A stretch of DNA of 63,980 bases from Candidatus Woesearchaeota archaeon (lineage in GTDB: Archaea; Nanobdellota; Nanobdellia; SCGC-AAA011-G17; GW2011-AR20), in the NCBI GenBank assembly GCA_018302465.1, contig JAGVZQ010000003.1:1-63980 (forward strand). The letters run 5' to 3'. Shown piece by piece: positions 5,204 to 59,514 of this stretch (positions are counted from its first letter, which is position 1; each line of letters starts with the position of its first letter). The notes under the pieces are model-generated. The model worked only from the letters and a program-made list of their open reading frames with translations. It ran no database searches and had not been told where the DNA came from. The translations under genes and the position numbers were made by a program.

Positions 5204-5325
5204 TGGGCCTGATCAGATTTGAATTCGTCGATAATTTCTTACCTCTGACGACCCCCACCTTATCAGACTCACCTTCTCTTTATCTAGGAAAATGTGGTGC
5301 TCTAACCAGGCTGAGCCACAGGCCC
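5204..5325 (-). tRNA. tRNA-Ile(GAT) with two non-canonical BHB introns: 30/31 (26 nt, 5268-5293) and 53/54 (21 nt, 5224-5244)
   Basis: Acceptor GGGCCTG/CAGGCCC with A73, D-arm GCTC-AGCCTGGTTA-GAGC, loop CTGATAA. Intron 1 BHB: CACC/GGTG, bulges ACA/AGT, inner helix TTTTC/GAGAA. Intron 2 BHB: CGTC/GACG, bulges AGA/AAT, inner helix GGTAA-GAAA-TTATC. The spliced product is a 75-nt cloverleaf. Confidence 0.8.
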
Positions 5326-6129
5326 ATAGTAAGAATTAATATCAACAACACCTTTTAAAATCTTTCGCCTTTCAATTATATTTGTGTTAGGCGGACAAAA
5401 TCCAAATTTCTTCCATACATCATATTTAGTAAGGTGTTTAGATGAACTAAAACCAATTTTATCCATCCAAATATCCAGATTTTTCCTACCACTAATATCA
5501 ATCTGGTGTTCGAAATTTATCTTTCCATTTCTATAGTTTCTTAAATTATAACATACACAAGAATTTATTTTTAAATTATCTAAAATGAACTTGACAAATA
5601 TAATTAAACTTTTACTCTGACTATTGATCCCTATAGAGGGATAGTAATTCCTTCGTTTGTATCTTTTCTTAAAGCTTATGCAACCATCCGTGTCAGTTAA
5701 ACCTTTCAAAAAAGCCTTCTTAATTCTAAAATTTGAACTTTTTATTAGGCTAGGAACATTCATATCTCTTTTAGAACCAGCAGGAAGGCCTATTACCCGA
5801 TTTAAAAAATAAAAAACAGCTTTTGATCTAAAACTAGTTCTTATTGTTGTTTTATTTCCAGCGTAAACCCATACTTTAATATTAAATAAATCCTTGATTA
5901 AGGGTGCTATGTAATCTTTATGAAATTCTGCTTCGTCAATTTCATGTCCATAGTATTCAACATTGTAATCAATAGTATTACAGGTTTTCCGTTTATACGC
6001 ATTAAGACAACCATCGCCAACATGGACACCAATAAAATAAGCCAATTTTTGAGTCATTTTAGTAGGAATAGTAACTTTTCTGTTAATATCAGATTTATTA
6101 AAATCAATCTTAGGAATATCCAGTTTCAT
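5302..6129 (-). CDS. Free-standing double-motif LAGLIDADG homing endonuclease-like protein
   Basis: LAYFIGVHVGDGCL and FLKGLTDTDGCI motifs. The C-terminal region is homologous to ORF 29480-30169. The last 8 codons (YGPVAQPG*) are read from the tRNA-Ile 5' exon. Confidence 0.85.
   Translation of the reverse strand: MKLDIPKIDFNKSDINRKVTIPTKMTQKLAYFIGVHVGDGCLNAYKRKTCNTIDYNVEYYGHEIDEAEFHKDYIAPLIKDLFNIKVWVYAGNKTTIRTSFRSKAVFYFLNRVIGLPAGSKRDMNVPSLIKSSNFRIKKAFLKGLTDTDGCISFKKRYKRRNYYPSIGINSQSKSLIIFVKFILDNLKINSCVCYNLRNYRNGKINFEHQIDISGRKNLDIWMDKIGFSSSKHLTKYDVWKKFGFCPPNTNIIERRKILKGVVDINSYYGPVAQPG
5353..5360 (-). promoter_or_regulatory. Candidate TATA box (TTTTAAAA) of tRNA-Ile, embedded in the LAGLIDADG coding sequence (codons I-L-K)
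   Basis: 27 nt separate the box from the mature tRNA 5' end. The same octamer sits at the equivalent codons upstream of the tRNA at 30185. Confidence 0.5.
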
Positions 6130-6150
6130 AAAAAATTAACAAAATTAGTA

Positions 6151-6193
6151 TTTATAAGTCTCGCGCGAGAGGTTGTCCGATGGACTAGTGAGT
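6151..6193 (-). promoter_or_regulatory. Conserved promoter module, copy A: 28-nt core (6166-6193), 7-nt spacer, TATA (6151-6158)
   Basis: Minus-strand reading: ACTCACTAGTCCATCGGACAACCTCTCG-N7-CTTATAAA, with 21 nt to the ATG. Near-identical to the copies at 22148 and 29415. Confidence 0.7.
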
Positions 6194-6257
6194 TGAATAT
6201 ATATTTTAAATTATACAAAATGAGATAGACTTTTTTGTTTTAAAATACTATTCATCA

Positions 6258-7598: not shown

Positions 7599-7643
7599 AT
7601 TTAAACAATAAACTATTTAAATGCTATTTTAAGCTAATTTAAC

Positions 7644-8519
7644 ATGGGAGAAAATGTAGAAAAATTTTATGATATTCATTATAAGAAATTAATGATAATT
7701 CCTATTTTAATCTTATTATTGAGTATAGGATTTCTAACTTTTAATTACATAAACACAGGAGAAATAATCCAAAGAGATGTAGAGCTAAAAGGAGGTATAG
7801 AAGTAACAATTGACAAACCCGGTTTAACATCAACAGAAGTAGAATCCATTCTTGGAACAAAATATGAGGATTTTTCAGTAAGAGAGTTAAGTGATTTTTC
7901 ATCCAGAAAAAGTTTAGGAGTTACAATAAAGATAAGTAATGTAGATGAAGATGAATTAAAAGAGTTTCTAAGTTCAGAGATAGGTTTCGAAAATTCTCAG
8001 TATAATACAAGAATAATAAATGCAGCATTTGCAGAAAGCTTCTATAAATCTCTAATAATAGTATTAATCATCTCATTCATTTTAATGGCTTTAACAGTTT
8101 TGATATCTTTCAGAACTTTCATACCTTCTGTTGCAGTAATAATCGCAGCATTAATAGATATAATCTCAACATTGGCAATTGTTAGTTTTTTAGGAATGAA
8201 ATTAAGCGCGCCAAGTATCACTGCATTTCTTTTAGTTATAGGTTACAGCATAGATACTGATGTTTTATTGACAACAAGAATGTTAAAAAGGCAGAATTCA
8301 AATTTATTGTCTAGAATGGTGGGAGCAATAAAAACAGGCCTTACCATGAGCATAACAACAATAGCAGCAATGATAGCAGCAATCTTATTTGCTGTAAATC
8401 CAGTATTAAAAGAGATTTTCCTTATCATTGCAATAGCTGTAACAATAGACATAATAGCAACATATCTTGGAAACGCTCCAATATTGATGTGGTACGCTAA
8501 GAAGAGGAATATAAAATGA
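7644..8519 (+). CDS. secF: Protein-export membrane protein SecF
   Basis: 291 aa with an N-terminal TM, a periplasmic domain and a C-terminal 5-TM RND-like block. Overlaps secD by 4 nt. Confidence 0.8.
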   Translation: MGENVEKFYDIHYKKLMIIPILILLLSIGFLTFNYINTGEIIQRDVELKGGIEVTIDKPGLTSTEVESILGTKYEDFSVRELSDFSSRKSLGVTIKISNVDEDELKEFLSSEIGFENSQYNTRIINAAFAESFYKSLIIVLIISFILMALTVLISFRTFIPSVAVIIAALIDIISTLAIVSFLGMKLSAPSITAFLLVIGYSIDTDVLLTTRMLKRQNSNLLSRMVGAIKTGLTMSITTIAAMIAAILFAVNPVLKEIFLIIAIAVTIDIIATYLGNAPILMWYAKKRNIK

Positions 8520-10832: not shown

Positions 10833-10941
10833 CGCGGGGACTGGGATTTGAACCCAGATATCCTAATGGAAACCGGTTTTCACAACCCAATTCGAGATTC
10901 GCCTATAAATCCGGCGCAGTACCGAGTTGTGCCATCCCCGC
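10833..10941 (-). tRNA. Class II tRNA-Ser(CGA) with two introns: 30/31 (13 nt, 10898-10910) and 37/38 (12 nt, 10879-10890)
   Basis: Acceptor GCGGGGA/TCCCCGC with G73, T-arm CTGGG-TTCAAAT-CCCAG, 15-nt variable arm (TCC-ATTA-GGA). After removing the two segments the anticodon arm is CCGGT-CTCGAAA-ACCGG. Intron 1 BHB: CGCC/GGCG with bulges GGA/AAT. Intron 2 has bulges AAT/AAA and a central helix with a U33 mismatch. Confidence 0.65.
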
Positions 10942-12807: not shown

Positions 12808-13497
12808 ATGATCTTAGAAAACCTTAACGTCAAAATAAAAGAAATAAAAGAAGTAGCAGAACTAACAAAATCTTTTGTTCTTGAAAAGCCAGAAAACTTT
12901 GTTTATGAACCCGGCCAGCATGTTTTTATTGAGTTATCAATAGATAATGGAAAGCCTTTTTCTTTAGCTTCTTCGCCTCATGAAGATGTTTTAGAATTTG
13001 CAACAATTATAAGAGATTCAAGTGAATGGAAGCAGGAATTAAACGATAAACAAGAAGGAGATGAATTAATATTATCTGGCCCATATGGGGCATTCAAGTA
13101 TGAAGATTCTGAAAAGGATATATCTTTCATTGCTGGCGGAATAGGCATTACGCCTTTTATAGGAATTCTAAGATACTTAACAGAAAAAGAAATGGATACA
13201 AAAGTTGTCTTGCTTTATTCCAATAAAAACAGGAAAAGAACCGCTTTTAGAAAAGAGTTAGATGATTTATCTGAAAAAAATAAAAATATAAATATCATCT
13301 ATACAATGACAGATGATCCAGAATATGAAGGGAATAAAGGAAGGATTGATAAGTCATTTATTAAAAAGCATGTAGAGAATATAACCAATAAAGTTTGGTA
13401 TATTGCTGGCCCGCCTTTCATGGTTGATTCTTTTAAATTAGTGTTGAAAGAGCTTGGTGTCGAAAAAATTAAAATAGATTCATTTAAAGGCTATTAA
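12808..13497 (+). CDS. Ferredoxin-reductase-type FAD/NAD(P)-binding oxidoreductase
   Basis: PGQHVFI..FSLASSP..GGIGITPF motifs. Paralog of 25949-26641. Confidence 0.7.
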   Translation: MILENLNVKIKEIKEVAELTKSFVLEKPENFVYEPGQHVFIELSIDNGKPFSLASSPHEDVLEFATIIRDSSEWKQELNDKQEGDELILSGPYGAFKYEDSEKDISFIAGGIGITPFIGILRYLTEKEMDTKVVLLYSNKNRKRTAFRKELDDLSEKNKNINIIYTMTDDPEYEGNKGRIDKSFIKKHVENITNKVWYIAGPPFMVDSFKLVLKELGVEKIKIDSFKGY

Positions 13498-13911
13498 GAT
13501 ATTTTTGTTCAAAACCTCAGGATGATAGATATAGCCCGTAAAATTATTCTCTTTTAATTCATCTTTCTTAAAACTAAAGCTATGTAAATAATATTTATTG
13601 TCAAAAACTCCAATTCTCTTGTTTTTAATTAATTCTTTTCCTAAAATCAAGCCAATTATCTGCATCCCAGCGCAAATTCCTAAAACGGGTTTTTTAAATT
13701 CTTTCAGCCATGAAAACTTATCTAAATTTTCTAAATAATCATTATCTTTCAAAGCAGTTCCGCATATTATCACTTTATCACATTTATCTAAATCCTCTTT
13801 CTTTACTTTTCTATAATCAACAACTTTAAAGTTTTCTAATAGATCCGTAACTGGTCTGACAAACTCTTCATCATGCAGTTTCATCTTATTTACTTTAATT
13901 ACTAGTATCAT
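13480..13911 (-). CDS. Class I glutamine amidotransferase-like protein
   Basis: PVLGICAGMQIIG nucleophile-elbow motif. Confidence 0.6.
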   Translation of the reverse strand: MILVIKVNKMKLHDEEFVRPVTDLLENFKVVDYRKVKKEDLDKCDKVIICGTALKDNDYLENLDKFSWLKEFKKPVLGICAGMQIIGLILGKELIKNKRIGVFDNKYYLHSFSFKKDELKENNFTGYIYHPEVLNKNILIAFK

Positions 13912-14150
13912 TCTACTCCGCTCACCCCAAACAAAACCTTGATTTTATTCTTATTTCTGTTTCTTAAAATAAACCCCTTATTGGAAGATATAATTAATTC
14001 TTTTTTTAAAACCCATATCCTGATATAAATTCCTGTTACTAGTTTAGGGAGGAAAAATCGCTTTATCCTAATCTCCCTATTTTTATCTTCTATTTCTGTC
14101 GAAAAGAAGCTGTCATTTCCAATACCAATCTCAGTATAAATTTTTTTCAT
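13908..14150 (-). CDS. Hypothetical small protein
   Basis: ORF with 4-nt overlaps to both neighbours. No recognisable motif. Confidence 0.3.
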   Translation of the reverse strand: MKKIYTEIGIGNDSFFSTEIEDKNREIRIKRFFLPKLVTGIYIRIWVLKKELIISSNKGFILRNRNKNKIKVLFGVSGVE

Positions 14151-14740
14151 TTTCTAAACAAAGGAGATTCAACAACTTCAGATTCGTACTCTCCCCCTTC
14201 TCCATTTATATTTATTCCATACTTTTCTTTTAATTTAATCAATTCCTCAACAGCTTTTTTGTCAATTATCCTGTTAATCCACAAATCATCAAGACCATCA
14301 GCAGCAACTTTCACAATCTTAAATTTAAATCCATCTTTAATTAAATCTCTCAATAATTTTTCCTGATCCATCTGCCATAAAGGATTAAAGCACCATAAAT
14401 CTAATTCATCGCAAATTTTTTGAACTCTGGAAGCCTGATAAGTAGAAGCCACAGCTCCAGTAACAACACCTTTAATCTTAAACTCTTTCTTTGCTTTTTC
14501 TATAGTCTTTTTTAAATCCTTTAATTCCTCTTCTTTTTCTCCTTTTGTTTTAAATTTGATCAAAGAAATTTTCAATTTCTTAGCTTGTTTCTCAACTGCA
14601 TTAATTGGTGTATGAAACATATAGCTTTCTTCATTCTCAGAATCCAAAGTAATTAACACTTGAACTTCATCAGTCTTATCAGCCTTATACAAAGCATAAT
14701 TACTATCCTTCCCACCGGAAAATAAAACACCTAGTTTCAT
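14147..14740 (-). CDS. Dph6-like ATP pyrophosphatase (diphthine-ammonia ligase / MJ0570 family)
   Basis: MKLGVLFSGGKDSNYAL PP-loop motif. About 197 aa. Confidence 0.75.
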   Translation of the reverse strand: MKLGVLFSGGKDSNYALYKADKTDEVQVLITLDSENEESYMFHTPINAVEKQAKKLKISLIKFKTKGEKEEELKDLKKTIEKAKKEFKIKGVVTGAVASTYQASRVQKICDELDLWCFNPLWQMDQEKLLRDLIKDGFKFKIVKVAADGLDDLWINRIIDKKAVEELIKLKEKYGININGEGGEYESEVVESPLFRK

Positions 14741-14830
14741 AATATATTTTATAGAAGATACTTTTTTAAATCTAACTCTAGAAGTAGGTGTCTACATTTT
14801 ATATAGTTTTTGTTTTTTGTAGACCCCTAT

Positions 14831-15475
14831 TCAAACACCTAAAAACTCAGGCAATTCAGCAACAGATTTCAACACAGCAACAGGGTTATATTCTAGTAAA
14901 CTCTTCTTGCTATAATGCCCTGTTAATACTCCTATAGATTTAACTTTTGCATGTTTGGCAGCCATTAAATCATAAATAGAGTCTCCAATCATGTATTCTG
15001 GTTTATGTTTCAATAGTTTCTCAACTTTAATAATTTCATCTGGATAAGGTTTTGAATGCTTGACTTCATCACTTCCAACTATTAATTTAAAATACCTAGA
15101 GCTTAATCCGCTCCCCTTTAATAAGTAGTTAATATCCTTATGTCTTGTATTTGAAAGAACCGCTATATTATACTTATTTTTTATTATATTAAGCATCTCT
15201 TCAACCCCATTAACTTTTTTTGCATATCTATAGGTTTTCCTTACAAGATGGCTATGATGCAGTTTCAATAGCTCACATATTTCTTCAGTAGACTCCCCCT
15301 CTGTTAAAAGTTTAGCTATCTCAAATTTAGGCCTTCCAAATAACCTGACTAGTTTAGCATGCTCCCACATCTTATACCCCATTTTTCTTAAAGCATAATT
15401 ATAAGCTTCCATATGGGACCTATCAGAGAGTATTAATGTGTTATCAAGATCAAAACAGATTAATTTCTTAGACAT
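14831..15475 (-). CDS. HAD-superfamily hydrolase (phosphatase)
   Basis: CFDLDNTL motif I. ..GDSIYD motif. Start set at the internal ATG (MSKKLICFDLDNTL). Confidence 0.8.
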   Translation of the reverse strand: MSKKLICFDLDNTLILSDRSHMEAYNYALRKMGYKMWEHAKLVRLFGRPKFEIAKLLTEGESTEEICELLKLHHSHLVRKTYRYAKKVNGVEEMLNIIKNKYNIAVLSNTRHKDINYLLKGSGLSSRYFKLIVGSDEVKHSKPYPDEIIKVEKLLKHKPEYMIGDSIYDLMAAKHAKVKSIGVLTGHYSKKSLLEYNPVAVLKSVAELPEFLGV

Positions 15476-15509
15476 TTTATATGGATAGAATCTAATTAAT
15501 ATATAAACC

Positions 15510-16361
15510 TTAGTATGTAAGTATAAAATTAATAACACCTAATGCAAATAAAATCAATAATACTCCAAGAGCAATCATAACTAATCCAGCAGCAAGTCTC
15601 ATCCATTTCTTTCCTTCCTGCTTCATTTCCTTTATTTTTTTAATATTCATTCCAAAATAAACTAAAGCCAGTATTACAATTAAAGGCAGTACAAATATGA
15701 AGTTATATAATAACAGATAAGATACAATAGTGGCATCAAAGCCAATTTTAGATAATAATGTTGTAATGGTTAAATAAGGTCCTCCAGTACAGGGCAGTTC
15801 AACTCCAGCAACAAATACCCCTAAGAAAATAGTTCCAGGTATAGTTAAATGCTTCATAGATTTTTTTATTTTTTCAGCGTGTTTTGGAGAAATACTCAAT
15901 GAAAATCCCTTTCCATACCAGAAAAAATCCTTAACCTCTATCAATCCCCCAATTATGACAATTACAGCAACAATAATCCCAATTAAATTCGCTACTGCTA
16001 TAGACCCTAACAAAGGCAAATCAATTATAGAAGCGCCTATATTCTGTAAGAAAAATAATAGTCCAATACCCGCTAAGAAATAAGTGACATAAACAGCTAT
16101 TATGTATATAGATCCAGTAAACAACATCTTTCCTTTGTCTTTGGATAAAAACAATAAAGTTCCAATCAGCAATATCAAAACACCAATAGCGCAGGGATTT
16201 ATACTGTCTACTAAAGCAGTCAAAATAACAACAGGTAAGGTAGGTAATTGTATGTTTGTTATAGCATTACCAGTCAATCCATTTATGCTATTGCCTAATA
16301 AGAATCCAAAAAATGCAAGAACCATCCCTATTACATATTCTGATTTATTCATAATGTACAA
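15510..16361 (-). CDS. ccdA: CcdA/DsbD-family thiol-disulfide electron transporter
   Basis: Polytopic. DSINPCAIGVL and ELPCTGGP motifs. Confidence 0.75.
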   Translation of the reverse strand: MYIMNKSEYVIGMVLAFFGFLLGNSINGLTGNAITNIQLPTLPVVILTALVDSINPCAIGVLILLIGTLLFLSKDKGKMLFTGSIYIIAVYVTYFLAGIGLLFFLQNIGASIIDLPLLGSIAVANLIGIIVAVIVIIGGLIEVKDFFWYGKGFSLSISPKHAEKIKKSMKHLTIPGTIFLGVFVAGVELPCTGGPYLTITTLLSKIGFDATIVSYLLLYNFIFVLPLIVILALVYFGMNIKKIKEMKQEGKKWMRLAAGLVMIALGVLLILFALGVINFILTY

Positions 16362-20897: not shown

Positions 20898-22130
20898 ATG
20901 CCTGTTAATCCTAAATTCATATCCAAGAATGAGTTAAGGAAAATAATACAGGAGAATTACATAGGTTTTGAAAAAATAACTAAATTAGACAAGCAGGATT
21001 TCTTCGGCTCTTCCCCCCCTACAATATTTATTGGCTCTAAATTGCGCTATCCTCAGGTAAATGTAGGTATTCTAAGCCCGCCAGAAGAAACAGAAAGTGC
21101 ATGGATTCATGATGCTCAGACCTACTGGCCTCAAACAGATTTTACAATAGGAGATATTATAAAATTAAGATCAGCTTTAATCAATTCAAGGTTCACAACA
21201 ACTGTAAAATCTTTTTCTTCAGATAATAAGTTCTTAGACATAGCCCAGGAGATTGGAATTGGTTCTAAACCTGTAGATATAGAAATATCATTAAAAAAGA
21301 AACCAAAATTTTCCACAAGTTTTGATAATATAAGACTACCCATGGGACCAGGAGTTAGGTTAGAAAAGGTAAGAATCACAGAAAATGTTAAAGTAAATCC
21401 AACAGTTGACAAAATAATCTCTGATGTTGATCTAAAAGCAAATGACGCCTCTAATTATTTATTTTCAAAAGGTATAGATGAGCATACAATTTCTCAATTG
21501 CTTACGATTGGAGTTCTAGGATTAAAAAAGAACAGAAAACTAGTTCCAACTAGATTTTCAATAACCGCAACAGATGACAATATAGGGAAAAATATAATAA
21601 AGGAAATAAAAGATTATAATCCAATAGATGATTTCAGAATTTACGAAGGGAATTATTTTGGAAATTATTATTACATTCTGATGTTTCCGGGCGTTTTCAA
21701 TTATGAATTATTTGAAGGTTATATGCCAAGGAGCAGTTGGAATTCTCATTCGGGAGAGATAAAATGGGCAACAGATTCTGAAACTCATTTTGGGAGAAAA
21801 ACCTACGCTTCTAATACTGTTGGAGGTTATTATGCTGCTAGACTTCCAATTTTACATCATTTAAAACAAATGAAAAGACAAGCATTAGTTTTAGTTATAC
21901 GATTTGAAACAGAGGAATATTATGCTGCACTTGGAGTCTGGGTTGTAAGGTCAGCAGCAAGAAAAGCTTTAAGCAACAAAGAAAGAACTTTTGATTCAAA
22001 AGAAAACATGTTAAAGTATCTAAGGGCAGTTATCTATGGAAAGTTTAATTATGATATTGATATTATTCTTAAAAGAAGTGTTATGATGAATAGTATATTA
22101 AAACAAAAAAATCTTTCCCAATTTATATAA
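20898..22130 (+). CDS. nreA: NreA-like archaeal DNA repair protein (DUF650/DUF651)
   Basis: FFGSSPPTIFIGSKLRYPQVNVGILSPP N-terminal pattern and a size of about 410 aa, as recalled for the Nre family. Confidence 0.55.
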   Translation: MPVNPKFISKNELRKIIQENYIGFEKITKLDKQDFFGSSPPTIFIGSKLRYPQVNVGILSPPEETESAWIHDAQTYWPQTDFTIGDIIKLRSALINSRFTTTVKSFSSDNKFLDIAQEIGIGSKPVDIEISLKKKPKFSTSFDNIRLPMGPGVRLEKVRITENVKVNPTVDKIISDVDLKANDASNYLFSKGIDEHTISQLLTIGVLGLKKNRKLVPTRFSITATDDNIGKNIIKEIKDYNPIDDFRIYEGNYFGNYYYILMFPGVFNYELFEGYMPRSSWNSHSGEIKWATDSETHFGRKTYASNTVGGYYAARLPILHHLKQMKRQALVLVIRFETEEYYAALGVWVVRSAARKALSNKERTFDSKENMLKYLRAVIYGKFNYDIDIILKRSVMMNSILKQKNLSQFI

Positions 22131-22147
22131 TATAAAATATATTTTCC

Positions 22148-22190
22148 ACTCACTAGTCCATCGGACAACCCCTCGCACCAACTTTATAAA
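22148..22190 (+). promoter_or_regulatory. Conserved promoter module, copy B: 28-nt core (22148-22175), 7-nt spacer, TATA (22183-22190)
   Basis: ACTCACTAGTCCATCGGACAACCCCTCG-N7-TTTATAAA, with 23 nt to the ATG at 22214. Confidence 0.7.
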
Positions 22191-29188: not shown

Positions 29189-29296
29189 TAAAATCCCCCC
29201 TCATCAGTATCTATCTTGTTAACTGTGATAATATTCCTTATTTCTCTGAAGCATTTAAAAAGCTTTTTAAAGATGACTTATTAGATTATTTTGTGT

Positions 29297-29383
29297 GGGC
29301 TCGTAACTCAGCTTGGATAGAGTGCTAGCCTTCTAAGCTAGAAGTCGTGGGTTCAAAATTCAATGAAAATCCCATCGGGCCCG
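29297..29383 (+). tRNA. tRNA-Arg(TCT) with a 12-nt BHB mini-intron in the T-loop (59/60; 29358-29369)
   Basis: Acceptor GGGCTCG/CGGGCCC with G73, anticodon arm CTAGC-CTTCTAA-GCTAG. T-arm GTGGG-TTCA-AAA-TTCAA-TGAA-AAT-CCCAT. Splicing after the 2nd bulge nucleotide yields the T-loop TTCAAAT. Confidence 0.85.
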
Positions 29384-29414
29384 CATTTTTATTATTATTT
29401 AATATATATTTTTC

Positions 29415-29457
29415 ACTCACTAGCCCATCGGACAATCTCTCGGGTGAGGTTTATATA
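29415..29457 (+). promoter_or_regulatory. Conserved promoter module, copy C: 28-nt core (29415-29442), 7-nt spacer, TATA (29450-29457)
   Basis: ACTCACTAGCCCATCGGACAATCTCTCG-N7-TTTATATA, with 22 nt to the GTG at 29480. Confidence 0.7.
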
Positions 29458-29479: not shown

Positions 29480-30169
29480 GTGAGAAAGACAAATATCTAT
29501 GAATTCATTGGAGTGATAATTGGAGACGGTTCCCTCCTGTATAACCCAAAGAGGAGAGTTTACAGACTTGAAATAGCGGGAAATGCCACAGAAGATTATC
29601 CTTATTTTTTAAAGTTAAAACAGTTTATGGTGAAAAGTATGGGATATACACCAAAAATAAGATTCAGGACACACAAAAAAGGAAGAAGCATTTGCTTATA
29701 TTTGGATAATAAAAAGTTTTTAGAGTTTATGAAGAGTCTAGACTTACCATTTGGGAAAAAAACTTTTACAATAACTATCCCTAGTAATTTTCTTAACTGG
29801 AAATATTCAAAACACATAATAAGGGGAATCTTTGAAAGTGATGGTTCACTTTACTTTTCAAAAAGTAAGATAACTACAAATAAACCAACCTATCCCCGAA
29901 TAGAGATAAAAACTTCAAGTGAAAAACTAGTGTATCAAATAAAAAGTATCTTAAGTGAGAATGGTTTTAGTGTACAAACTATAGCTCCAAAAAGAGATAA
30001 AGCTACTAAGATTTACATTTCAGGGGAAAGAATGTTGAATAAGTGGATTGATGAGATCGGATTTAGCAGTAGAAAAAATTTGACCAAATATCTGTATTGG
30101 GATAAATTAGGATACTACACACCTCGTTCTACACTAAGGCAAAGAGAAACCCTTTTAAAATCTCCTTAG
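29480..30169 (+). CDS. Free-standing double-motif LAGLIDADG homing endonuclease-like protein (GTG start)
   Basis: YEFIGVIIGDGSL and IIRGIFESDGSL motifs. C-terminal ISGERMLNKWIDEIGFSSRKNLTKY is homologous to 5302-6129. Confidence 0.85.
   Translation: MRKTNIYEFIGVIIGDGSLLYNPKRRVYRLEIAGNATEDYPYFLKLKQFMVKSMGYTPKIRFRTHKKGRSICLYLDNKKFLEFMKSLDLPFGKKTFTITIPSNFLNWKYSKHIIRGIFESDGSLYFSKSKITTNKPTYPRIEIKTSSEKLVYQIKSILSENGFSVQTIAPKRDKATKIYISGERMLNKWIDEIGFSSRKNLTKYLYWDKLGYYTPRSTLRQRETLLKSP
30153..30160 (+). promoter_or_regulatory. Candidate TATA box (TTTTAAAA) of the downstream tRNA, embedded in the last codons (L-L-K) of the LAGLIDADG gene
   Basis: 24 nt separate the box from the tRNA 5' end at 30185. 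Confidence 0.5.
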
Positions 30170-30184
30170 TTAATTTCATATAAG

Positions 30185-30322
30185 GGGCACATCGCCAAGA
30201 TGAGTTATTCATGGCAACGGTTAAGGCAGTCGATATTCCAAAAGAATAGCTGAACCTGCAGACCATTTGGCCGAGAGCGACTATCGCAGGTTCGAAATTT
30301 AACGAAAATCCTGCTGTGCCCT
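30185..30322 (+). tRNA. tRNA-Cys(GCA)-like gene with four predicted introns: D-loop (30200-30217), 30/31 (30233-30254), 37/38 (30262-30275), 59/60 (30297-30308)
   Basis: Acceptor GGGCACA/TGTGCCC with U73. Three introns have clean BHBs (GCCA/TGGC, CAGT/GCTG, TTCG/CGAA, each with 3-nt bulges and inner hairpins). The 37/38 intron has bulges AGA/AGA and a central helix with a U33 mismatch. The spliced 72-nt product folds as GCCA-AGCGGTTA-AGGC, GTCGC-CTGCAGA-GCGAC, GCAGG-TTCGAAT-CCTGC. Confidence 0.6.
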
Positions 30323-56490: not shown

Positions 56491-59400
56491 ATGGCAATTG
56501 TAGATTCCTATAGTTTCTATTCAGGAAACATACCGGTAAAAATAGCTATAGAAAGCGATAGAAACGAATTTGTTCTAATCTACAAAGTTTCAATTTCTCA
56601 AATAAGTGCAAATACAGATATAGTTCTGGATAAAATAAGGGAAGAGCTGATAGAAAAGGTAAAGCTGGGGATTGGAGACATTACAGATCCCAAAAAATTA
56701 GATTTTGTTAAGGAGAAATTTAAAAAAACAATTATTAACCTGATAAAAAAATACTTCCCAGATATCTCAGATGAAACTTTAGATTTTTTTACAACCTATT
56801 TAATGCACAAAAGCTTTGGTCTTGGAAAAGTAGAAATATTAATGAAAGACAAGGATCTTGAAGAGATAGTAATAAACAATGCAGAAGAGCCTATATGGGT
56901 ATATCACCATAAATACGGCTGGTTAAAAACAAATGTTCTGTTAAAAGATGAAGGATTGGTAAAGCACTATTCAAGTTTAATCGGAAGGAAGGTTGGAAGA
57001 AGTATTACTTTGTTAACCCCATTATTGGATGCAACATTGGAAACAGGAGACAGAGTAAATGCAACACTAAACCCAATTTCATCAAAAGGAAACACAATAA
57101 CAATAAGAAAGTTTTCTTCAGACCCAATAACAATTACAAAATTCATACAGAACCAGGTAATGAGCTACTCAACAGCAGCTTTAATCTGGTTAGGTGTTGA
57201 ATATGAATCCTCAGTTTTGATAAGCGGAGGGACGGCTTCGGGAAAAACGAGTGTCCTAAACGCAGTAGGAGAATTCTTCCCTCCAAATCAAAGAATTATC
57301 TCAGTTGAAGACAGTGTTTCAGGGGATTCTGAAATTGTTTACAAAGATAAAGGAGTAATAAAAAAATCAACAATAGGAAACTTAATTGACAGTCAAATAA
57401 AAATTGAAAAGATAGTTTTGCATGATGGTACGGAAATTGCAGAAAACAAAGATGTAGAAATTTTGAGCATGGATAATTATGGAAAAATTTCTTTAGCTAA
57501 ACCCAGTTCTTTTATAAGGCATAAGGTAAAAAAACCACTTATTGAGATAAGATTGTCAAGTGGTAGAAAAATAACTGTTACCAAAGATCATTCTTTATTT
57601 AGTCTAGTTGATAATAAAATTAAGGAAGTAAGCGGTTCTGAAATTAAGGAAGGAACTTTTTTAGCCACTCCTAGAAAAATAGAGTATGAAGGAAGTTTTA
57701 AAATTATAGACCTAAGCATCCATCTCGATAAATTTGAAGATTGCATGGTTTCAGGAAATGTCATAAAGAGATTAATACAGGAACATGGACTTGATTTAGT
57801 TAGAAACAAAAGTAACAGACAATATTATAGAAGAGAAGGAATAGTCCCTGTTGCAGTTTTTAAGAAATTATTGTCTTATATTAAAGAAGAAGACAAGAAA
57901 TCCCTGAGTATAGTTACAAAGAGAAGCCATAAAGAGGGGAGGACCCAATTGCCTTTGTTGATTAATATCGATAATAACTTTGCAACTATAGTGGGTATGT
58001 GGCTTGCAGATGGATGTTATGATATTAGGTCTGTATTGATTAGTGATCCAGCAAAGGAGTCTTGGGAAATTTTACATAAATTTGCAAATATTTTTGGTGC
58101 TAGAGTAAGGCCACATAGTGATAAGGTAACTGCTGTAATAAACTCAAAGATAATAAAGGTTTTATTTAAGGATATCTTGGAATTAAAAGGAAATGCCTAC
58201 ACCAAAAGAATCCCTATATGGGCATTTAACTTAAACAAAGAACTTTCATCTTCATTGCTTAAAGGATACTTCAGCGGGGATGGTACTGTTAAAAAAAATG
58301 AAATATGTGTAAACAGCGCTTCCAGGGGATTATTAAATGATGTTCAGACCCTATTGCTGAGATTTGAAATCCTTTTAAGGGTTAGTTGGAAGCTAAATAA
58401 AGACAAAACTTATGAATCTAGAATCGGTTGCTCTAAATTTTTAAAGAAATTCAAAATAGATATAGGTTTTGTTCAGAATTATAAAAATGTAAAACTAAAC
58501 AAAATATGCGACAGAAAACCTAGTGATTCCAGCGACATTATTCCCTTAGCTAAGAATACATATTTAAAATTAAAACATATCCTTGGAAAAGGTTTCAAAG
58601 AAAATATGCCATACACATCTTGGAAATCCTGGCATGGAAATTATAAAAATTCACATATTGGGAGAAGTTACTTTTCATTATTAATGAAAACTCTTGATAT
58701 CTCTTCAATTTCTTTTGTGGATTCGGAAATAAAAAATATCGTAAGTTTAAGCAAAAATGATATTTTCTGGGATAAAGTAATAGGAATTAAAGAAATAGAT
58801 TTTGAAGGATATGTTTATGACTTAAGCGTCCCAGAAAGAGAAAATTTTATTTGTAATAATATAATCGCCCATAACACTAGAGAAATAACTTTGCCTAAAT
58901 ATCTCCACTGGGTTCCTATGATTACAAGATTACCAAACATAGAAGGAAAAGGTGGGGTTTCTATGCTTGACTTAATAATTAATTCATTAAGAATGAGACC
59001 TGATAGAATAATGGTAGGAGAGATAAGAAGAAAGGAAGAAGCAGAAACATTATTTGAAGCCATGCATACAGGTCACTCAGTTTATGCTACATTGCATGCA
59101 AATAGTGCAGAAGAAACAGTTAACAGGTTGACAAATCCCCCCATTAATGTTCCTAGAACTCTCCTTCCTGCAATAGGAATGGTATTAGTTATGTACAGAA
59201 ACAGAAGAACAGGAATCAGAAGAATTTTCCAGATAGCAGAGATAACAAATGAATCTAATCCAAACGTGCTTTTGCAGTATGATATCTCTCAGGATAAAAT
59301 TTTAACAGCAAATGAATCTGTGAAATTTATGCCTGACCTTGAGATTCAGACAGGTATGTCAAAGAATGAAATAAACTTGGATCTGACAAATAAAATAAAC

Positions 59401-59514
59401 ATCTTAAAATGGATGGTAAAAAAGAATATCACAGATCTTGATGAAATTGGCAGAGTTATTGCAACTTATTACACAAATAAAGAGGGCTTATTAAAGTTCA
59501 TAAGTAAAAATTAA
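56491..59514 (+). CDS. FlaI/PilB/VirB11-class type IV pilus or archaellum assembly ATPase, interrupted by an intein
   Basis: Walker A ISGGTASGKTS. RIISVED|intein|TREITLP. MVGEIRRKEEAETLFEAMHTGH. The extein is about 486 aa. Confidence 0.9.
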   Translation: MAIVDSYSFYSGNIPVKIAIESDRNEFVLIYKVSISQISANTDIVLDKIREELIEKVKLGIGDITDPKKLDFVKEKFKKTIINLIKKYFPDISDETLDFFTTYLMHKSFGLGKVEILMKDKDLEEIVINNAEEPIWVYHHKYGWLKTNVLLKDEGLVKHYSSLIGRKVGRSITLLTPLLDATLETGDRVNATLNPISSKGNTITIRKFSSDPITITKFIQNQVMSYSTAALIWLGVEYESSVLISGGTASGKTSVLNAVGEFFPPNQRIISVEDSVSGDSEIVYKDKGVIKKSTIGNLIDSQIKIEKIVLHDGTEIAENKDVEILSMDNYGKISLAKPSSFIRHKVKKPLIEIRLSSGRKITVTKDHSLFSLVDNKIKEVSGSEIKEGTFLATPRKIEYEGSFKIIDLSIHLDKFEDCMVSGNVIKRLIQEHGLDLVRNKSNRQYYRREGIVPVAVFKKLLSYIKEEDKKSLSIVTKRSHKEGRTQLPLLINIDNNFATIVGMWLADGCYDIRSVLISDPAKESWEILHKFANIFGARVRPHSDKVTAVINSKIIKVLFKDILELKGNAYTKRIPIWAFNLNKELSSSLLKGYFSGDGTVKKNEICVNSASRGLLNDVQTLLLRFEILLRVSWKLNKDKTYESRIGCSKFLKKFKIDIGFVQNYKNVKLNKICDRKPSDSSDIIPLAKNTYLKLKHILGKGFKENMPYTSWKSWHGNYKNSHIGRSYFSLLMKTLDISSISFVDSEIKNIVSLSKNDIFWDKVIGIKEIDFEGYVYDLSVPERENFICNNIIAHNTREITLPKYLHWVPMITRLPNIEGKGGVSMLDLIINSLRMRPDRIMVGEIRRKEEAETLFEAMHTGHSVYATLHANSAEETVNRLTNPPINVPRTLLPAIGMVLVMYRNRRTGIRRIFQIAEITNESNPNVLLQYDISQDKILTANESVKFMPDLEIQTGMSKNEINLDLTNKINILKWMVKKNITDLDEIGRVIATYYTNKEGLLKFISKN
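57313..58875 (+). mobile_element. 521-aa intein (Ser1 ... His-Asn / Thr+1) with an embedded LAGLIDADG homing endonuclease domain
   Basis: Block A SVSGDSEIV, block B VTKDH, LAGLIDADG motifs IVGMWLADGCYD and LLKGYFSGDGTV, block G VYDLSVPERENFICNNIIAHN|T. Removing it restores the ED-TRE motif of the ATPase. Confidence 0.85.

Follow-up and report, generated by a model that had tools for sequence, protein, structure and literature searches.

Predicted 12-nt T-loop introns in neighboring tRNA-Arg and tRNA-Cys genes of a Candidatus Woesearchaeota archaeon

The tRNA-Arg(TCT) and tRNA-Cys(GCA) genes of a Candidatus Woesearchaeota archaeon each carry a 12-nt insert in the T-loop, and both inserts are very probably protein-spliced archaeal tRNA introns at position 59/60 with a relaxed bulge-helix-bulge (BHB) motif of the bulge-helix-loop (BHL) type, hBH or HBh'. 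The genes lie in a stretch of 63,980 nucleotides of contig JAGVZQ010000003.1, here called the window, which has a GC content of about 31% and archaeal housekeeping genes (MetRS, AlaRS, aTrm56, Nre, AglB/STT3, ribosomal protein L10 and SecDF). This kind of intron is already known, so that the Arg and Cys inserts are a further example of it, and no new mechanism is revealed by them. The analysis adds a predicted four-intron tRNA-Cys gene with an orthologue that is missing three of the introns, a 12-nt cassette that is widespread in DPANN MAGs, and the observation that tRNA finders miss such genes. The two genes and their T-arms are composed as follows; L049 and L121 are two syntenic relatives of the locus.

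29262-29273 (+): TATA-like box GCTTTTTAAAGA, about 30 nt upstream of tRNA-Arg, a putative promoter by its position
29297-29383 (+): tRNA-Arg(TCT) gene with one predicted intron; standard cloverleaf in ARAGORN after removal of 12 nt
29347-29351 (+): 5' strand of the Arg T-stem, GTGGG
29352-29370 (+): 19-nt Arg T-loop, TTCAAAATTCAATGAAAAT
29352-29357 (+): Arg T-loop nucleotides 54-59, TTCAAA, in which TTCA is the exon strand of a 4-bp central helix
29358-29369 (+): predicted Arg mini-intron at 59/60, ATTCAATGAAAA, 12 nt, made up of A, the loop TTCAA, TGAA and AA, with TGAA pairing with TTCA
29371-29375 (+): 3' strand of the Arg T-stem, CCCAT
30150-30162 (+): TATA-like box CCCTTTTAAAATC, about 30 nt upstream of tRNA-Cys, in a segment that aligns with L049 and L121
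30185-30322 (+): tRNA-Cys(GCA) gene, 138 nt, with four predicted introns; detected by ARAGORN only after in-silico splicing
30286-30290 (+): 5' strand of the Cys T-stem, GCAGG
30291-30309 (+): 19-nt Cys T-loop, TTCGAAATTTAACGAAAAT
30291-30296 (+): Cys T-loop nucleotides 54-59, TTCGAA, from sequence and fold
30297-30308 (+): predicted Cys intron 4 at T-loop 59/60, ATTTAACGAAAA, 12 nt, made up of A, the loop TTTAA, CGAA and AA, with CGAA pairing with TTCG
30310-30314 (+): 3' strand of the Cys T-stem, CCTGC

The two T-arms read exactly as an earlier sequence-only reading had given them, and the two 19-mers differ at three places only: A or G at nucleotide 57, T or C at its partner in the intron, and C or T at one loop base. 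In both inserts, T54-T55-C56-R57 pairs with YGAA of the intron to form a 4-bp helix that extends the T-stem, and a 3-nt bulge, A-A-U60, lies on the 3' strand against the T-stem. The 5' site, A58-A59-A, follows directly after the helix inside an 8-nt apical loop (AAATTCAA in Arg, AAATTTAA in Cys); A58 and A59 of Arg form the exon portion of the bulge at the 5' cut site. This bulge-helix-loop was the minimum-free-energy fold of both T-arm minihelices, with ensemble frequencies of 0.60 and 0.87, and it was also the minimum-free-energy fold in both full precursors. The folds confirmed the reported lack of an outer intron helix: the strict hBHBh' motif has an intron-intron helix h' that closes the 5' bulge, and neither insert has one. 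Since h' is missing and the 5' site lies in the apical loop, the inserts belong to the relaxed class only, and they show the 4-bp exon-intron helix, the two 3-nt cut sites on opposite strands and the adjoining exon helix of a BHL. The cut site is ambiguous from the sequence, where three placements in the A-runs give the same product. BHB motifs are cut after the second base of the bulge, and this rule places the intron at 59/60.

Removal of the 12 nt from the Arg precursor yielded a standard tRNA-Arg(TCT) with the T-loop TTCAAAT in ARAGORN, and the Cys precursor yielded a standard tRNA-Cys(GCA) with the T-loop TTCGAAT only when the 12 nt and three further insertions were removed. The 7-nt T-loops expected from the sequence alone were thus recovered in silico, within standard cloverleaves. 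Before removal, ARAGORN detected neither precursor with its intron mode on or off; the Rfam tRNA model did not match the Cys precursor and gave only a partial, mis-aligned match to the Arg precursor (29.1 bits). Because ARAGORN misses both genes and Rfam misses the Cys gene, genomes of this clade would seem to be without tRNA-Cys and tRNA-Arg(TCT) in standard annotation. The motif GGTTCR-AAA-N5-YGAA-AAT-CC would be a simple handle to recover such genes.

We propose that in the precursor U54-U55-C56-R57 would be prevented from entering the normal T-loop and would instead pair with YGAA of the intron in a helix stacked on the T-stem. This pairing would leave A-A-U60 as a bulge on the 3' strand and the 5' site A58-A59-A in the 8-nt apical loop. 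EndA would cut after the second base of each site, and an RtcB-type ligase would join A59 to U60, giving the predicted junctions GGTTCAAATCC in Arg and GGTTCGAATCC in Cys. The 7-nt T-loop could then fold, become modified and dock on the D-loop. We infer EndA cleavage and RtcB-type ligation from the geometry, the covariation described below and precedent.

The three further insertions of the tRNA-Cys gene are also predicted to be introns, as follows.

30200-30217 (+): Cys intron 1, ATGAGTTATTCATGGCAA, 18 nt, D-loop 15/16; central helix GCCA/TGGC, bulges AGA and AAC, inner helix TGA/TCA; boundaries equal to an exact gap in L049
30233-30254 (+): Cys intron 2, ATATTCCAAAAGAATAGCTGAA, 22 nt, anticodon stem 30/31; central helix CAGT/GCTG, bulges CGA and AAC, inner helix TATTC/GAATA; placed by in-silico splicing, folding and the L049 alignment
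30262-30275 (+): Cys intron 3, ACCATTTGGCCGAG, 14 nt, canonical 37/38; relaxed motif with central helix CTGC/GCCG and one U-C mismatch; called by ARAGORN as a canonical intron once the others are out, and missing in L049

In the fold, the motif of intron 3 forms beside the anticodon stem only once intron 2 is out. The Cys orthologue of L049 has the T-loop intron only, and its sequence equals the predicted exons of the window base for base, so that an alignment of the two shows gaps exactly at the three predicted introns. The occurrence of orthologues with and without individual introns confirms the predicted exon boundaries. Published work, including reviews and the tRNAscan-SE 2.0 paper, puts the limit for one archaeal tRNA gene at three introns (PMC3239211, PMC4033280, PMC8450103), and a literature search that included DPANN tRNA-intron studies found nothing further on four-intron archaeal tRNA genes. 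Going by the predicted introns, four are apparently possible in one cis-spliced archaeal tRNA gene, one above the stated maximum.

The locus occurs at about 99.7% identity in contigs of several assemblies, and some of the record names carry NCBI BioSample numbers; these samples are probably Rifle aquifer groundwater. In the assembly collection, 65 blocks index the ORF adjoining the locus. The locus is spanned by six independent contigs that are about 99.7% identical to the window, with the Arg gene identical in all six. The Cys gene was aligned in three of these contigs (L001, L004 and L006), and the sole difference was a 9-nt tandem duplication, GAATAGCTG, confined to intron 2. The syntenic relatives L049 (JACQNJ010000013.1) and L121 (CAZDKM010000001.1), both MAGs labelled Candidatus Woesearchaeota, have flanking genes with 73-81% nucleotide identity to the window. 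The six concordant contigs and the presence of the same T-loop intron in the syntenic relatives indicate that the locus is no assembly artefact.

There is next to no likelihood that the Arg and Cys genes are decaying pseudogenes or products of assembly. The failure of standard tools to detect either gene would fit such a view, but all stems are intact after in-silico splicing, both genes have a TATA-like box upstream and a T-run terminator downstream, orthologues in two other species keep identical exons, the contigs agree as described, and the lone difference in the Cys gene between the aligned contigs falls inside a predicted intron. We also think it very unlikely that the 12 nt are retained, with the tRNAs working with an expanded 19-nt T-loop or an extra mini-hairpin. 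Translation components of DPANN are often atypical, which would accommodate such tRNAs; removal of the insert, however, gives exactly the conserved 7-nt T-loop, and the other tRNAs of this genome, in the roughly 80 kb seen, have normal 7-nt T-loops. Moreover, the insert always shows the geometry on which EndA acts, a 4-bp helix with a 3-nt bulge, in which one pair covaries among the matches listed, and the same site and motif are cleaved in vitro in ARMAN-2 (PMC3239211).

The T-loop motif GGTTCRAAANNNNNYGAAAATCC occurs twice in the window and in none of 100 dinucleotide-preserving shuffles of it, even with one mismatch allowed. We scanned one genome per GTDB species for this motif and obtained at least 120 loci, most of which, among the matches listed, were chance matches in bacteria. 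At least 21 matches lay in tRNA genes whose T-stem pairs 5/5 and whose acceptor stem pairs 7/7 and, among the matches listed, all 21 were in MAGs labelled archaeal, mostly Woesearchaeota, Nanoarchaeota and Aenigmatarchaeota, with one Nitrososphaerota and several 'Methanosarcinales'. ARAGORN recognized 16 of these 21 after removal of the 12 nt; its calls, again among the matches listed, covered about ten amino acids, such as Pro, Tyr, Phe, Glu, Cys, Lys, Leu, Met and Gly. At least one of these calls was wrong: L080, called SeC, is a tRNA-Arg(TCT) by manual reading.

Length, bulge bases and three of the four pairs in the helix were given in the search pattern, so that conservation of length and bulges was preset and the covariation rests on one pair, between nucleotide 57 and the intron, at which the pattern permitted four combinations (G-C, A-U, G-U and A-C). 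This pair was G-C in 12 and A-U in nine of the 21 tRNA genes among the matches listed, and neither G-U nor A-C occurred. The chance matches outside tRNA genes gave AT 50, GT 20, AC 20 and GC 10, or about 60% Watson-Crick and 40% not. In the alignment of the 21 sequences, 189 of 189 cells pair, compared to a shuffled mean of 82%, and the observed covariation score was reached by none of 500 shuffles. The A-U to G-C difference between Arg and Cys, which the sequence-only reading had taken for a compensatory change, is therefore real covariation.

Longer T-loop insertions were also found, in two cases beside genes with the 12-nt type, and the L060 and L077 MAGs hold T-loop introns of several sizes.

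L060 7555-7691 (+): longer T-loop insertion, 33-35 nt after TTCGAAT, beside genes with the 12-nt type
L077 1590-1733 (+): longer T-loop insertion, 33-35 nt after TTCGAAT, beside genes with the 12-nt type

An orthologous pre-tRNA of 175-210 nt, with the acceptor stem GGGGACG and a mini-intron at 59/60, is shared by L014, L103 and L126. Its other insertions amount to at least 100 nt, and in L126 the loop of one intron-like hairpin holds an additional insertion of 32 nt. This pre-tRNA may hold more than four introns.

The similarity of the Arg and Cys introns had been attributed either to duplication or transposition or to strong constraint from the endonuclease. Structure or the search pattern dictates seven of the 12 bases in the intron, which leaves only the 5-nt loop informative on homology. 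Over these five bases the two loops match at four in the window (TTCAA and TTTAA) and at all five in L049 (TTCAA in both), and the identical loops of L049 indicate that the ancestral pair was probably identical except for the compensating base. The Cys intron of L049, ATTCAACGAAAA, has the TTCAA loop though its own T-loop starts TTCGA. Among the matches listed, the loops of other lineages are diverse (AGTTA, CAAAG, CCCTG, GGTTC, TGGTA, TCGAG and others), and 3.3% of the background loop pairs from other lineages reach 4/5 and 0.8% reach 5/5. Since the inner 5 nt vary freely between lineages, the loop is not set by endonuclease constraint, and the matches, though limited to five informative bases, point rather to a common origin; the first half of the earlier suggestion is thus favored and the second disfavored.

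We lean toward a shared origin of the two copies: an intron would have been duplicated or transposed, or copied by local gene conversion, and a T-to-C change would then have restored the pairing with G57. The copies are about 800 bp apart, and only two of the seven tRNA genes seen in about 80 kb (the window and its extension L133) carry a T-loop intron, namely the neighbors Arg and Cys. Independent convergence on similar 12-mers, through structural and enzymatic constraint together with an AT-rich composition, is a credible but less probable account, and selection for a TTCAA-like loop may also have played a part. With seven bases fixed, only five are free to differ, the genome has about 31% GC, and TTCAA-like loops recur elsewhere, as TTCAT in the tRNA-Tyr of L015, ATCAA in the tRNA-Pro of L063 and TTCAA in the tRNA-Arg(GCG) of L129, the last on a contig of 42% GC. 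Against convergence stand the diversity of the inner loops of other lineages, with so few background pairs at 4/5 among the matches listed, the adjacency of Arg and Cys as the sole carriers, and a further instance in which different tRNAs of related genomes have the same loop, namely CAAAG, shared by L014/L103 and L080. A metagenome scan of T-arms outside the Arg and Cys genes for the TTCAA-like cassette gave three loci, a number too small to map a family, of which one was a chance match and two were tRNA-like: the tRNA-Arg(GCG) of L129, and L127, which was judged by eye and went undetected by ARAGORN.

The pairing partner of the intron is the near-universal T-loop TTCR, and by this reasoning the cassette A-N5-YGAA-AA could fit any tRNA with one compensating base. 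We raise only tentatively, and as a rather unlikely idea, that the cassette is a portable element that copies itself or is copied, with Arg and Cys as a recent transfer and the TTCAA-like and CAAAG-like families as independent spreads across Woesearchaeota. If true, and taken with the four-intron tRNA-Cys and at least ten introns in seven tRNA genes, this DPANN lineage would equal or surpass the most intron-rich Thermoproteales in intron density, with a different EndA.

The T-arm and the 12-nt intron of tRNA-Arg(TCT) in L049 and L121 are identical to those of the window. The other Arg introns of these relatives differ from the window and from each other, as follows.

L121, reverse-complement coordinates 7626-7735: tRNA-Arg(TCT) with three predicted introns, 13 nt at 30/31, 11 nt at 37/38 and 12 nt at 59/60
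L049, reverse-complement coordinates 5381-5503: tRNA-Arg(TCT) with three predicted introns, about 16 nt after position 9, 21 nt at about 29/30 and 12 nt at 59/60

In this small sample, the comparison of predicted introns indicates that the T-loop intron is stable and that other introns turn over fast. The spacer between Arg and Cys also differs between these genomes, with a different small ORF in L049 and a length of about 240 nt in L121. The 11-nt intron of L121 has a perfect CTTC/GAAG helix, and manual reading of L080 gave a 9-nt intron, also at 37/38, with only three of four helix pairs. The Arg and Cys introns had been ranked among the shortest BHB introns: at 12 nt they are indeed short, but they are no record, since 11 bp has been published and 11 nt and 9 nt are the inferred lengths in these relatives.

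The window and its 7.5-kb extension L133, about 80 kb of this genome, show seven tRNA genes with at least ten predicted introns.

tRNA-Glu: no intron
tRNA-Asn: no intron
tRNA-Gly: one intron, 15 nt, at 37/38
tRNA-Gln(CTG), L133 4478-4576, about 3 kb left of the window start: missed by ARAGORN; two introns, including a 12-nt BHL at 37/38, by manual reading
tRNA-Arg: one intron
tRNA-Cys: four introns
10833-10941 (-): tRNA gene with at least two introns

The gene at 10833-10941 (-) has normal acceptor, D and T arms and about 35 extra nt between the D-arm and the T-arm. A brute-force search for one or two introns in this gene gave no consistent cloverleaf, and the ARAGORN model of the gene as Phe(GAA) leaves a 14-nt variable region. 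The tRNA-Gln of L133 has an apparent D-loop intron and a 12-nt BHL intron at 37/38, AGTACTGGAGAA, with the helix CTCT/GGAG. By this manual reading, the T-loop would not be the only place in this genome to hold mini-introns with an 8-nt apical loop.

A tblastn search with an approximate M. jannaschii EndA query found no EndA in the window or in the fetched loci, and none was present among 30 window ORFs scanned against Pfam. The type of enzyme thus rests on the literature. DPANN archaea, across diverse lineages, are reported to have mostly an alpha4-type EndA with an extra 'L3' loop (PMC5829648), and the strict alpha4 and alpha'2 enzymes are reported to be unable to cut substrates without h' (PMC3239211, PMC5829648). 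Kaneta et al. (2018) predicted the tRNA genes of a Pacearchaeota and a Woesearchaeota MAG, tied the marked disruption of DPANN tRNA genes to the L3-loop EndA, and noted that DPANN tRNA sets are incompletely predicted and call for manual curation (PMC5829648). On the reading given here, a mesophilic AT-rich DPANN lineage would join the organisms whose EndA must handle T-loop bulge-helix-loop substrates.

The closest known case is the pre-tRNA-Cys(GCA) of ARMAN-2 (Candidatus Micrarchaeum acidiphilum), which has a 13-nt intron at 59/60 with an hBH/BHL motif (Fujishima et al. 2011, PMC3239211) that the cognate epsilon2 EndA cuts in vitro; a tRNA-Pro with two T-loop introns, at 53/54 and 59/60, is described there too (PMC3239211). 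The two systems share DPANN membership, the tRNA-Cys identity, the 59/60 position and the relaxed hBH/BHL motif. They are likened by position, size and motif, and they differ in that ARMAN-2 belongs to the Micrarchaeota, in place of the Woesearchaeota, and the intron here is one base shorter (12 nt). The enzyme here is also probably different from the epsilon2 type, as an L3-loop alpha4 EndA is reported for several other DPANN lineages. Compared to the canonical hBHBh' intron at 37/38, the inserts share the 4-bp exon-intron central helix and are assigned to one enzyme family with it, with 3-nt bulges that would be cut behind the second base, but they lie in the T-loop, lack the outer helix h' and have the 5' site in a hairpin loop.

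In Thermoproteales, near-identical introns in different tRNAs have been read as transposition (Sugahara 2008 and Fujishima 2010, as reviewed in PMC4033280 and PMC4090602). The likeness extends to non-canonical sites, relaxed BHB motifs, several introns per gene, rapid gain and loss, and shared introns. Those organisms are, however, TACK hyperthermophiles with an (alpha-beta)2 EndA that has a Crenarchaea-specific loop, in contrast to an AT-rich mesophilic groundwater DPANN archaeon; the stated maximum for them is three introns per gene, compared to four in the Cys gene here, and the similarity signal here is only 5 nt. The nuclear tRNA introns of the eukaryote Cyanidioschyzon merolae are ectopic and 11-69 bp long (PMC3728597). 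They resemble the present introns in being short and of BHB type, with four in the T-loop and several per gene, and they differ in their eukaryotic host.

A free-standing ORF of the LAGLIDADG type lies between the two tRNA genes.

29480-30169 (+): free-standing double-motif LAGLIDADG ORF (Pfam LAGLIDADG_3), between tRNA-Arg and tRNA-Cys and outside both introns

We considered whether this ORF is encoded by an intron or drives intron mobility. Its place is in the spacer, beyond the ends of both tRNA genes, L049 and L121 lack it there, and no link to the introns emerged. A paralogous free-standing double-motif LAGLIDADG ORF lies at 5302-6129 (-), with 29% identity to the first (E = 9e-21). An RNase J-like beta-CASP gene at 12842-15559 of the related contig L131 contains an intein, and no such intein is present in L130 or L132. 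In the window, an intein with a LAGLIDADG domain interrupts the type II/IV secretion ATPase (T2SSE) at 56491-59514 (+). A conserved intergenic motif of about 50 nt, which includes ATATATTTTCNACTCACTAGYCCATCGGACAAYCYCTCG, was found at 29405-29445 (+), about 6150-6215 (-) and about 22122-22175 (+), directly upstream of three ORFs, namely the two LAGLIDADG genes and a gene with a Bro-N domain. The motif may be a common promoter or leader of possibly mobile genes.
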